The notes under the pieces were generated by a model. The model was given only the letters and a program-made list of their open reading frames with translations. It was not told where the DNA came from and searched no databases. A DNA stretch of 42,292 bases, taken from the sequence record NC_041897.1; one strand, 5' to 3'. The position numbers and the translations under genes were made by a program. This document shows, piece after piece, positions 24,418 through 27,307 of the stretch; position 1 is the stretch's first letter; each line of letters opens with the position of its first letter. The stretch comes from Escherichia phage K1ind1.

Positions 24418-25838
24418 TTCTTACCTCGTCTCTTCATGTAATTAAGCAATTCTTCTTGCACAGATTTCTTTTCGTCAGTACGCGCGGCGACAACCTCGTC
24501 CAGCGTGTCTTTAGCAACGATGTGGTACAGGAACACCGGCCTCTCGTGTCCTGCCTGTTTCTGGCGGACCGGGCCTATTCGCTCGACAACCTGCAAATAG
24601 TGTTCAAGATTCCAGCCTTGCGAAATAAACGCCAGATGATGCCCGCCGTCCTGTAAATTCAAACCATGCCCGGCTGACGCAGGATGCACGCATAAGATTT
24701 CGATTTCCCCGCGGTTCCACGCTTCCATCTGCTTATTGCCCTTAGCGCCTTTGGCGAACGCCTGTGCTTGTGGGAATCGCTTAAGGATACGCTCAAGTTC
24801 GTGCTTAAACTGATAGGCTACCAGTAACGGTGCGCCCTGTAACTCCTCAACAATGGACTCAAGCGCATCCAGTTTCGTATCGTGCACTTTCTCCCAGTCT
24901 TTCGTTGCTTCGCCGTCTGGCCCGGATACATACACGGCACCGGATGCAATCTGCAGGCACTTCGACGTCTTCGCAGCAGCGTTAGCCGCTTCAACTTCCC
25001 CGCTCTCCAGTTCCGCGAATAACTTTTCCTCCATATCGATGTACGCCTGACGCGCCTTCTTCGGCAGGTCAATTTCCACTGGCACGATAATCGGCGCTTC
25101 GCAACCAAACCACTCGGCGGCGTCAATCGTGAGACTAATGTCTTTCATCTTCTGATGAATCTCATTATCCGCACCCGGTCGTGCGTGATACTCCCGCGCC
25201 ATCGCGGATTTCCCTTTCTGTACCGAGTTAAACCAGCGGTCTGTGAATGCCGTGTACGAAGAACCAAGGCGCTCGCCAGCGTCGATAAACCAGTTCTGCC
25301 CCCACAAGTCCTTGAGGCCGTTCGGCGACGGTGTGCCTGTCAGGTTAATGAAACGCTTAACCTTTCCGAACGCCACTTTGCTTAGCGCCTTAGCCCGTTT
25401 GCTTCCTCCAGAACGGCTACGGAAAGATTTCAGCTTCGTGCTCTCATCAGCAACGATAACCGTAAAAGGCCAGTCGTCTTTGCCGTAGTAGTCAATCAGC
25501 CACTCGATAACTTCGTAGTTTGTGCACACCACGTTAGCATCTGACTCCAGCGCCGCGATACGGCGCTTCTCTGAACCGGTTGCGTCTACGACACTCAGAC
25601 AGGGGAAGTTCCAACGTGCCTGTTCCGCGGGCCACGTACCTGACGCAACACGTAAAGGAGCCAGAATTAACACTCGGTCGTCGTCATTAAGTTGCCCATT
25701 ACGGAACAGCCGATTGAGAACCCACAACGTTGACCCCGACTTACCGCTGCCCATGCTCGCCCAGATATTGCAGCGATGGTGCCGCAGCATGAACGAAGTC
25801 ATGAGCTTCTGGTATTCGCGCCTTTGAAACTTACTCAT
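24414..25838 (-). CDS. superfamily-2 helicase (SNF2/DEAD-like)
   Basis: 474 aa; Walker A SMGSGKSGST, DExx box IVADESTK, motif VI-like QVVERIGPVRQKQ. Confidence 0.65.
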   Translation of the reverse strand: MSKFQRREYQKLMTSFMLRHHRCNIWASMGSGKSGSTLWVLNRLFRNGQLNDDDRVLILAPLRVASGTWPAEQARWNFPCLSVVDATGSEKRRIAALESDANVVCTNYEVIEWLIDYYGKDDWPFTVIVADESTKLKSFRSRSGGSKRAKALSKVAFGKVKRFINLTGTPSPNGLKDLWGQNWFIDAGERLGSSYTAFTDRWFNSVQKGKSAMAREYHARPGADNEIHQKMKDISLTIDAAEWFGCEAPIIVPVEIDLPKKARQAYIDMEEKLFAELESGEVEAANAAAKTSKCLQIASGAVYVSGPDGEATKDWEKVHDTKLDALESIVEELQGAPLLVAYQFKHELERILKRFPQAQAFAKGAKGNKQMEAWNRGEIEILCVHPASAGHGLNLQDGGHHLAFISQGWNLEHYLQVVERIGPVRQKQAGHERPVFLYHIVAKDTLDEVVAARTDEKKSVQEELLNYMKRRGKK

Positions 25839-26655
25839 TTACCGCCCCCATGAATGCCTTTATAAATTCAGCGGCTACTTGCGGGACGATGGCATTGCCA
25901 TAACCGCGCAATCGTCCCACTCTGGCGGGTATCCCATTAGCCAGCGGGAATGCGCCGGGTTCAACTGGCCTGAATTTTCCATCCCGGCATCCGAGCCAGT
26001 CAGTATCTGACCAGAAGCCGTGATGCGGATTGGTTGTGTTATTTTCAGACCCTGCTCCGTCGAGTAGTCCAGCCTGTCGAATGTCCTGTCCTTCCCGTCC
26101 TTGCGAATCACTGTCTCTCCGCTCCCCCTGTAGTCGTTCGCTGTCGGTGTAGGCCAATTGGTGCGCACCAAAGAAGAGCCGCTCTCTTTTGTGCGGTGCG
26201 CCGACGCTACAAGCTGGAAGTACGGCAAACCCGACGGCGTAGTCTTCTCTTTCCATGTGAATCTGTAAATCGCACATCCACGATTTTGCAATTGCTGGCG
26301 CAACCTGTTCCCCAAAGAGGACTGGAGGGCGGCACTCGCTGATGAGGTCGAGGAACACAGGTGCAAGGTGTCTAGGGTCGAACTGTCCGAGTTGCTTTCC
26401 CGCCGCGCTAAACGGTTGGCAAGGCGGGCTTCCCGTCCAGAGAGGCGCATCTTCCGGAACTCCCGCAAGTCTGAGCGCGAGAGGCCAGCCGCCGATACCC
26501 GCGAAAAAATGACACTGGGTGAACCCGTCAAGGTCTTCTGGCTTAACTTCGGTAATGCTTCTTTCATCTACAACTCCAAAAGGTATGTGACCCTGTTTTA
26601 TTAATTCACGCAGCCACGCGGCTGCACCTTTATCCCATTCGTTGTAATAGTTCAT
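25831..26655 (-). CDS. DNA (cytosine-5)-methyltransferase
   Basis: 274 aa; motif I FAGIGG, motif IV PCQPFS, ENV-like FGEQV, C-terminal motif X GNAIVPQV; short target-recognition region. Confidence 0.75.
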   Translation of the reverse strand: MNYYNEWDKGAAAWLRELIKQGHIPFGVVDERSITEVKPEDLDGFTQCHFFAGIGGWPLALRLAGVPEDAPLWTGSPPCQPFSAAGKQLGQFDPRHLAPVFLDLISECRPPVLFGEQVAPAIAKSWMCDLQIHMEREDYAVGFAVLPACSVGAPHKRERLFFGAHQLAYTDSERLQGERRDSDSQGREGQDIRQAGLLDGAGSENNTTNPHHGFWSDTDWLGCRDGKFRPVEPGAFPLANGIPARVGRLRGYGNAIVPQVAAEFIKAFMGAVNE

Positions 26656-26873: not shown

Positions 26874-27158
26874 CTAACTATAATAGTTCGCTATTAGGTC
26901 GTCAACCTGTTTAAACGAACCAACGACAAAAACATTTGCACCGCGTTTACGCATCCGCCCGTGCTCTCGTAGCTGGTGTGGGTCTGGCTTCGTGCTTTCG
27001 TCTTTCTTAACCTCAACGAACCAGATGATGCCGCCGGGGAGAATTACCAGCAGGTCGGGGGCGCCCACTCTATTTTCGTACGACAATTTGCGTACGAGGC
27101 CCCCCAGGGCCTCGAATCGCTCTTTTGCGTATTTCTGTACGCGGCCCTCTTTAGTCAT
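26874..27158 (-). CDS. VRR-NUC domain nuclease (PD-(D/E)xK)
   Basis: about 94 aa from ATG 27158; GAPDLLVI ... VEVKK motif arrangement typical of VRR-NUC. Confidence 0.55.
   Translation of the reverse strand: MTKEGRVQKYAKERFEALGGLVRKLSYENRVGAPDLLVILPGGIIWFVEVKKDESTKPDPHQLREHGRMRKRGANVFVVGSFKQVDDLIANYYS
26877..26905 (-). promoter_or_regulatory. sigma70-like promoter TTGACG-17-TATAGT with AATAG-N4-CTATT palindrome in spacer (26882-26895)
   Basis: read on minus strand; lies inside the last codons of the VRR-NUC gene; drives 26843 and downstream genes. Confidence 0.45.
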
Positions 27159-27307
27159 GAGCGCAGAACCCAAGTAAGGAAAGCCCCTCCGAGAACGGCA
27201 ACGCCCACAAACTTAAAGAACAGGCCGTAACAGAACATCGCGGCTATTCCCGCACCGAGTAACAGCGCGAGCATGGTTACTATTGACCTAAATACAAACA
27301 TCTTCAT
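27155..27307 (-). CDS. small hydrophobic membrane peptide (50 aa, below ORF-track cutoff)
   Basis: ATG with GGAGG RBS; single predicted TM helix; stop overlaps VRR-NUC start (ATGA). Confidence 0.3.
   Translation of the reverse strand: MKMFVFRSIVTMLALLLGAGIAAMFCYGLFFKFVGVAVLGGAFLTWVLRS

Follow-up and report, generated by a model that had tools for sequence, protein, structure and literature searches.

The window analysed here is the complete genome of Escherichia phage K1ind1 (NC_041897.1), a lytic kagunavirus, with a length of 42,292 base pairs (bp). On the minus strand, within the replication gene block, it carries a C5-cytosine methyltransferase gene, here called alpha, which a preliminary description had taken for a compact, self-contained orphan enzyme. 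We find that alpha encloses a second open reading frame (ORF), here called beta, in the +1 frame. Across very distant phages, each of the two frames is open, has homologues and is selected at the protein level. Our analyses suggest that the locus very probably encodes a two-subunit C5-cytosine methyltransferase for which one stretch of DNA is read in two frames. The following features define the locus.

25831..26655, minus strand: alpha gene, an ORF of 274 amino acids (aa) with ATG start, stop included; C5-cytosine methyltransferase catalytic subunit
25875..26567, minus strand: beta gene, a 230-aa ORF, stop included, in the +1 frame and wholly within alpha; proposed target-recognition and motif IX subunit
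26574..26577, minus strand: Shine-Dalgarno sequence GGAG of beta, 6 nucleotides (nt) upstream of the beta ATG (26565-26567), within alpha codons G27-V28

The 274-aa ORF reported earlier at 25831-26655 is present with its ATG start, and residues 68-170 match the Pfam family PF00145 (E 1e-16). Alpha and beta fall into different PHROG families, both annotated as DNA methyltransferase, i.e. phrog_363 for alpha (E 7.5e-87) and phrog_1008 for beta (E 2.6e-54). Two elements of this picture are already known. A nested arrangement has been described before for M.EcoHK31I, and the inner ORF is annotated in GenBank as 'putative Mte8-like protein', the records of K1H, K1G, K1ind3 and some Finnish isolates listing both ORFs and other records listing the outer ORF only; for K1ind1, too, the inner ORF has been annotated. 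A literature search found no origin for the label 'Mte8'.

The nested reading frame across phages and bacterial genomes

A homologous +1-frame ORF inside alpha is found in 166 of 166 loci, comprising 80/80 viral loci, 80/80 loci from bacterial genomes and 6/6 named phages. The viral loci were sampled from IMG/VR with alpha at 45-82% identity, and all contain the +1 beta homologue with a median open stretch of 273 codons compared to 59 in the +2 frame. The bacterial-genome loci were retrieved with the beta pattern, and alpha overlaps beta, with beta in the +1 frame, in each of them (80/80). The annotated methylases N15 gene 58, epsilon15 cytosine methylase, eiAU methyltransferase and gp22 of the Rhodobacter phage RcMcDreamy are alpha-like from end to end (41-44% identity) and show no match to beta; the +1 frame of the same four genes encodes a beta homologue of 242-355 open codons (E 1e-17 to 1e-33), and their +2 frame is interrupted by 18-24 stops.

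The arrangement extends to more distant phages. A beta profile built from loci of proteobacterial phages only matches exclusively the +1 frame of Mycobacterium phage SG4 gp64 (E 3.2e-6, Z = 1e6) and of Paenibacillus phage Paisley gp72 (45% GC; E 1.4e-12). Both genes are annotated as methylases of ~250 aa (L088:1000-1758 and L089:967-1749, respectively) with unannotated +1 ORFs of 223 and 172 codons, suggesting that the hidden subunit is probably absent from many annotations of actinophages and Firmicutes phages. An exhaustive search with beta residues 75-230 returned 10,007 representative clusters (50% identity) at E <=1e-3.

These observations bear on the simplest alternative, according to which alpha is a self-sufficient compact monomeric orphan and the nested ORF a non-functional by-product of composition or ancestry. 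The catalytic motifs are recognisable in alpha alone, many records annotate alpha only and GC-rich genes yield long alternative ORFs by chance, all of which would fit this explanation. The +1 ORF is, however, open and homologous in every one of the loci, including the Paisley gene of 45% GC, and its conserved starts lie behind Shine-Dalgarno sequences. Synonymous codon permutation of the window's alpha gave a 230-codon +1 ORF in 1 of 5000 trials. Together with the selection data given below, this renders the alternative very improbable.

Across relatives, the beta starts cluster at two alpha positions. At alpha residue ~29, as in the window, the start is a gATGaa inside V-D-E behind GGAG, and at residue ~35 it lies behind an AGGAG supplied by the conserved (D/E)-R-S codons of alpha. 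Some betas begin at the conserved core, e.g. P0367 with 162 aa.

No catalytic domain is present in any of the 10 longest proteins (389-758 aa) among the 150 beta-like proteins with the best scores (0/10); these are betas with many modules or proteins that run on into a Dam or PD-(D/E)XK gene downstream. P0254 and P0255 are beta-like with a C-terminal DUF2800/PD-(D/E)XK nuclease (758 aa) or Dam N6-adenine methyltransferase domain (497 aa), representing either natural fusions or read-through gene calls. P0078 (286 aa, one contig) starts like beta, changes to the alpha frame behind the second module and ends with the usual C-terminus of alpha, which is either a frameshift variant or a sequencing error.

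Selection on the two frames

The segments of both proteins that are distinguished by their conservation are the following.

26358..26567, minus strand: beta N-terminal tail, residues 1-70; not constrained as protein, with an entropy of ~1.5 bits at beta codon position 2
26148..26345, minus strand: beta conserved core, residues 75-140; overlaps alpha motifs V-VIII; proposed alpha-binding part
26031..26156, minus strand: beta W-x-T-P module, residues 138-179, WPTPTANDYRGSGETVIRKDGKDRTFDRLDYSTEQGLKITQP; single repeat copy; proposed target-recognition domain
25914..25967, minus strand: beta motif-IX-like block, residues 201-218, QLNPAHSRWLMGYPPEWD; recognised by conservation, with a non-significant hhalign match to motif IX of M.HhaI
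26020..26163, minus strand: alpha linker, residues 165-212; passenger translation of the beta module, rich in G, R, E and D, with variable sequence and length
25906..26019, minus strand: alpha conserved C-terminal block, residues 213-250, FWSDTDWLGCRDGKFRPVEPGAFPL..G.P.RVGRLR, with invariant columns

Codon-position entropies were calculated from 71 sequences with <80% identity, and an alpha-only null was generated by synonymous recoding of every gene, using the pairwise identity in the beta frame as measure. Residues 1-100 of alpha show the ordinary pattern with codon position 3 at 1.3-1.8 bits. The beta core and C-terminus are far more similar in the beta frame than expected from selection on alpha, with identities of 0.458 vs 0.253 and 0.578 vs 0.284 in the alpha-only null, respectively. 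Conserved positions in the core are L81, L85, L89, G97, W105, K106, T110, P111, A121, S122, R125, W138 and T140. At the C-terminus, beta residues 201-220 (LNP..SRWLMG.P..W..C) are nearly invariant, P204, L210 and W217 being strictly so and L202, N203, W209, M211, G212 and P214 being at least 90% conserved. The C-terminal block of alpha overlaps this motif-IX-like block and is thereby doubly constrained; alpha codon position 3 reaches its lowest variability, 0.40 bits, at alpha residues 231-240.

The tail behaves differently. Its identity of 0.329 exceeds the 0.299 of the null by a small amount equal to the excess in the +2 control. In 70 loci, the tail contains 10 stop codons compared to 64 expected, and 61 loci are free of stops compared to 28 expected. 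Stop avoidance in a tail that is not constrained as protein indicates that translation begins upstream of the core.

The same data speak to a second alternative, in which a single chain is made by programmed frameshifting, running in alpha to motif VIII, shifting +1 into the module and motif IX and returning by -1 for motif X. Joined in that order, the pieces give the canonical succession I-VIII, target-recognition domain (TRD), IX and X, and the family may originate from such a single-chain gene. Against this, the beta core (residues 75-137) overlaps alpha motifs V-VIII with selection on both, so that the same nucleotides must be translated in both frames. Stops are rare in the beta frame long before any position at which a shift could plausibly occur, and beta has a Shine-Dalgarno sequence and an ATG of its own. 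The alpha frame is open across the module region in every locus, and two consecutive frameshifts would be needed. In addition, M.EcoHK31I is active from separate alpha and beta plasmids, as described in the cited passages on that enzyme (see below). We consider frameshifting into a single chain hardly credible.

The part of beta lying between its core and its C-terminal block consists of W-x-T-P modules, the single one of the window beginning with WPTPTANDYRGSG. Near-identical kagunaviruses carry 2 or 3 modules in differing combinations, and gain, loss and swap are seen. K1ind3 (L002:832-1761) has an in-frame insertion of 105 bp relative to the window, adding 35 residues to both alpha and beta with both frames remaining open, which implies that every gain of a module has to satisfy both frames. 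A total of 766 modules was counted in 332 betas, each protein having 1-8 of them; their median length is 39 aa. Single-linkage clustering at 45% identity chained 512 of the 766 into one family; the modules are thus repeats of one unit, and the clustering leaves specificity types undefined.

The frame in which the modules are selected was determined from 56 homologous module pairs of loci with alphas <80% identical. Of the differences, 27% fall on the first, 20% on the second and 53% on the third position of the beta codons. The beta-frame amino-acid identity is 0.74, compared to 0.47 for the alpha and 0.49 for the unused frame. The concentration of differences at beta position 3 together with the higher beta-frame identity indicates that the modules are beta protein and that alpha reads through. 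Selection on the module region is confined to the beta frame, and the 'short variable region' of alpha is a passenger read-through. The alpha segment is rich in G, R, E and D (0.42 vs 0.27), and in amino-acid composition the two frames of this region separate weakly (hydrophobic fraction of 0.32 vs 0.27). In 8 close relatives, both ORFs are intact, and the nonsynonymous to synonymous differences move toward selection on beta in the module region, as expected, with small counts of 16/7 for alpha and 12/11 for beta in the module region and 6/10 for alpha and 13/3 for beta upstream of it.

Alpha residues 165-212 accordingly show no alpha-frame selection, their columns combining high entropy and gaps, and a TRD and motif IX are not encountered between motifs VIII and X of the alpha chain. 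Of the short variable region in the preliminary description, the length holds, with a spacing of ~85 aa from motif VIII to motif X, whereas the picture of a self-contained enzyme with such a region is not supported, since the region is selected in the +1 frame. This also weighs further on a self-sufficient alpha with a meaningless nested ORF: the beta frame bears the codon-position signature of purifying selection, and from motif VIII to its C-terminal block alpha offers no stretch under selection for use as recognition domain. As the variable region is selected as +1-frame protein and not as alpha protein, the enzyme is most likely a heteromer of alpha and beta like M.EcoHK31I.

Relation to known C5-cytosine methyltransferases

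The motifs assigned in alpha are given below, with invariance scored over 58 diverse relatives.

26488..26505, minus strand: alpha motif I, FAGIGG, residues 51-56; binding of S-adenosylmethionine (AdoMet); aligned to HhaI FAGLGG
26407..26427, minus strand: alpha motif IV, PPCQPFS, residues 77-83, with catalytic Cys79; aligned to HhaI FPCQAFS and invariant in the 58 relatives
26302..26313, minus strand: alpha motif VI, GEQV, residues 115-118; ENV variant, aligned to HhaI MENV
26173..26193, minus strand: alpha motif VIII, HKRERLF, residues 155-161; aligned to HhaI QKRERIY, with R157 and R159 invariant
25882..25899, minus strand: alpha motif X candidate, GNAIVP, residues 253-258; assigned by pattern, with G253, N254 and A255 conserved

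Using a profile of 58 relatives, hhalign aligns alpha residues 34-169 to residues 1-177 of M.HhaI and its relatives with a probability of 98.8% (E 5.5e-17), the alignment spanning motifs I and IV-VIII; the M.HhaI reference sequence is 100% identical to database protein P0387. G115, E116, Q117 and V118 of motif VI are invariant, the N of ENV being replaced by Q family-wide. Motifs I and IV and the VI-like motif named in the preliminary description are thereby borne out by alignment to HhaI, and its motif X stands as a pattern without statistical confirmation. Alpha shares the catalytic motifs with M.HhaI-type monomers (PF00145) and differs from them in that its own frame encodes neither a TRD nor motif IX. 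By hhalign, neither of these parts of HhaI aligned to alpha, and a short sub-profile of the alpha C-terminal block compared to HhaI with shuffles gave no signal.

Between motifs I and IV of alpha, motifs II-III are absent, hhalign placing a gap of ~35 aa. The N-terminus of alpha (residues 1-35, 26551-26655) contains YYNEWDKGAA...GVVDERSI, resembling SNEWDKYAQ...GDITQV of HhaI motifs II-III, and an N-terminal alpha profile finds HhaI 36-46 above 300/300 shuffles with a score of just 3.1. Alphas of actinophages and Paenibacillus phages have the normal motif order. The alphas of the proteobacterial branch may thus have a permuted motif order II-III-I-IV.

For beta, the sole hhalign match to HhaI comprises HhaI residues 269-292, i.e. 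motif IX, and was obtained in 3 runs with different profiles. A short sub-profile of the block reached a score against HhaI that was also reached by 10/1000 shuffles, which is marginal. Sub-profiles of the beta core and the beta module gave no signal against HhaI with shuffles, and short C-terminal fragments of beta and alpha had no match in Pfam.

The closest described counterpart is M.EcoHK31I of E. coli HK31 (target YGGCCR; Lee, Kam and Shaw 1995). The passages on this enzyme in PMC2836561 and PMC3404938 describe a C5-methyltransferase of two polypeptides, alpha containing motifs I-VIII and X as well as a predicted TRD and beta containing motif IX. According to the same passages, both chains are required for activity, the enzyme works with alpha and beta on separate plasmids, internal methionines of its beta can serve as translation starts and association of the chains depends on the N-terminal part of beta. 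In the described layout, the beta ORF lies wholly nested in the alpha gene in another frame as in K1ind1, the likeness being one of layout. M.EcoHK31I belongs to a restriction-modification system, whereas the K1ind1 gene is an orphan in the replication block of a lytic phage. The M.EcoHK31I chains of 309 aa (alpha) and 176 aa (beta) also differ in size from the 274 and 230 aa in K1ind1.

M.AquI is likewise an active C5-methyltransferase of two polypeptides, with motifs I-VIII and half of the variable region in one subunit and the remainder plus motifs IX-X in the other (PMC3404938). This split is sequential and not nested dual-coding, and it places motif X on the small subunit, unlike K1ind1 with its candidate motif X in alpha. 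A different parallel is offered by the Bacillus temperate phages SPR, phi3T and rho11s, for which the account in PMC12707154 (Trautner et al. 1996) describes orphan multispecific C5-methyltransferases with several short tandem target-recognising domains that protect against several restriction systems. Relatives of the K1ind1 gene similarly carry tandem shuffled modules of ~39 aa, and each module would then confer its own specificity. The Bacillus enzymes are single polypeptides with their domains in frame, whereas the modules of the K1ind1 type belong to a subunit of their own, read from an overlapping frame. Unlike the multispecific enzymes, the beta of K1ind1 has one module, relatives having 2-8. 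In the literature searched, neither a nested alpha/beta arrangement in phages nor methylation data for kagunaviruses are described.

Several results weigh against a two-subunit methyltransferase with beta as recognition subunit. Searches of beta against Pfam, NCBIfam and the sequences of the PDB as well as a PDB profile search returned nothing significant. The motif IX match is reproducible yet non-significant (E ~0.09 in the three runs). One of these, a profile-profile comparison with an M.HhaI family profile, was no better for motif IX (E 0.085), and the same family profile did not detect motif X of alpha, for which hhalign, Pfam and the short-profile test gave no signal either. AlphaFold2 models are of low confidence, with a predicted local distance difference test score (pLDDT) of 39 for alpha and 48 for beta, since the alignments held close relatives only. 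In the +2 control frame, identity is also raised wherever two frames are constrained; double constraint conserves all frames, so that the +2 frame is no independent control. Finally, the M.EcoHK31I literature has the predicted TRD in alpha, whereas in K1ind1 selection on the modules acts in the beta frame alone.

Part of this evidence would fit a third explanation, in which beta is a real overprinted protein whose function lies outside target recognition, e.g. in regulating the methyltransferase or in acting against defence systems on its own, and the linker or C-terminal block of alpha finds the target. Beta lacks significant similarity to any characterised domain, the cited passages of the M.EcoHK31I papers assign motif IX alone to beta and the TRD to alpha, and alpha residues 213-250 are strongly conserved. 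The sole variable, module-structured sequence is, however, selected in the frame of beta and not in that of alpha, and the strong conservation of the alpha block means that it cannot account for varying specificity. Within HhaI, motif IX is the only part to which the C-terminal block of beta aligns, and beta is never found without an overlapping alpha in the 80 bacterial-genome loci. We regard such a separate function of beta as unlikely.

This supports a model according to which the locus encodes a two-subunit enzyme. Alpha would supply the AdoMet-binding and catalytic motifs I, IV, VI and VIII and the probable motif X, its 'variable region' being a flexible read-through linker connecting the catalytic core to the C-terminal block. 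Beta would be translated in the +1 frame from the internal GGAG-N6-ATG and consist of the unconstrained tail, a core that probably binds alpha, a module of ~40 aa that probably recognises the target and the motif-IX-like block. Both subunits are predicted to assemble into the active enzyme, which would methylate the phage DNA during replication and thereby protect it from host restriction, and relatives would alter specificity by adding, losing and swapping beta modules. We infer the assembly of the subunits, the recognition role of the module, the identities of motifs IX and X and the protective function from sequence. Orphan methylation protecting the phage from restriction, as proposed in the preliminary description, remains the most plausible function, and the target sequence still cannot be read from the protein. 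The notion of a self-contained compact enzyme is not supported in view of a second conserved +1-frame polypeptide carrying the module and the motif-IX-like block.

Wider reading and gene neighbourhood

On a broader scale, we suggest tentatively, with slightly less than even confidence, that the nested alpha/beta gene is the normal architecture of a very large phage and prophage family, with beta as a shufflable recognition array and the variable region of alpha as its read-through. The literature treats the nested arrangement as a rare exception known from M.EcoHK31I. The family spans phages of Proteobacteria, Actinobacteria and Firmicutes with at least 10,007 beta clusters, and the sequence data are in favour of this reading. 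If this reading is true, the overlap of ~690 nt would, among the same-strand dual-coding regions of prokaryotic viruses, be one of the longest and most deeply conserved, and thousands of annotated 'compact' phage methylases would be inactive when expressed without their hidden partner.

There are practical consequences. A codon-altered or codon-optimised outer frame would silently lose beta, probably resulting in an inactive enzyme. An inactive recombinant protein, named in the preliminary description as refuting outcome, would mislead if expression was limited to the 274-aa frame and the inner start codon was missing. Provided that the modules act as recognition domains, their shuffling would allow kagunaviruses and many prophages to retune their anti-restriction protection in the manner of the Bacillus phages, though in a separate subunit. 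Selection of the modules in the beta frame also questions the published placement of the TRD in M.EcoHK31I alpha. For the evolution of overlapping genes, the family offers more than 10,000 clusters with ~230 codons read in two frames and with zones constrained in alpha only, in beta only and in both.

In the genome of K1ind1, the same-strand neighbours of alpha are an SNF2 helicase, a 63-aa ORF, a 99-aa ORF and a family A DNA polymerase, in agreement with the location in a replication gene block described earlier. No restriction endonuclease gene adjoins alpha among the window's ORFs and in the annotated neighbourhoods of relatives, as had been stated for the window. In a transcriptome study of a kagunavirus, the methylase genes and the DNA polymerase share one temporal class.

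The start of alpha shares an ATGA with the stop of the upstream 63-aa ORF (26652-26655), and the ATG of the helicase (25836-25838) sits 8 nt within the 3' end of alpha (25831-25838). This tight packing of alpha with the 63-aa ORF and the helicase fits translational coupling along the replication gene block. The 99-aa ORF (26874-27173, minus strand) is annotated in relatives as VRR-NUC or Holliday junction resolvase and had no Pfam match at E <=1e-3.

Sampled chromosomal copies of the locus lie in P2-like prophages beside GpA and Dam genes and not beside restriction enzymes. Three of them, from Symbiopectobacterium (L097), Klebsiella (L168) and Erwinia (L131), are in P2-like prophages with an adjacent GpA gene, two of the three being also adjacent to Dam. 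In the chromosome of Pseudomonas sp. NUPR-001 (L134:2666-3820), a reverse transcriptase gene (RVT_1, E 3e-15) is located directly upstream of the alpha/beta copy.

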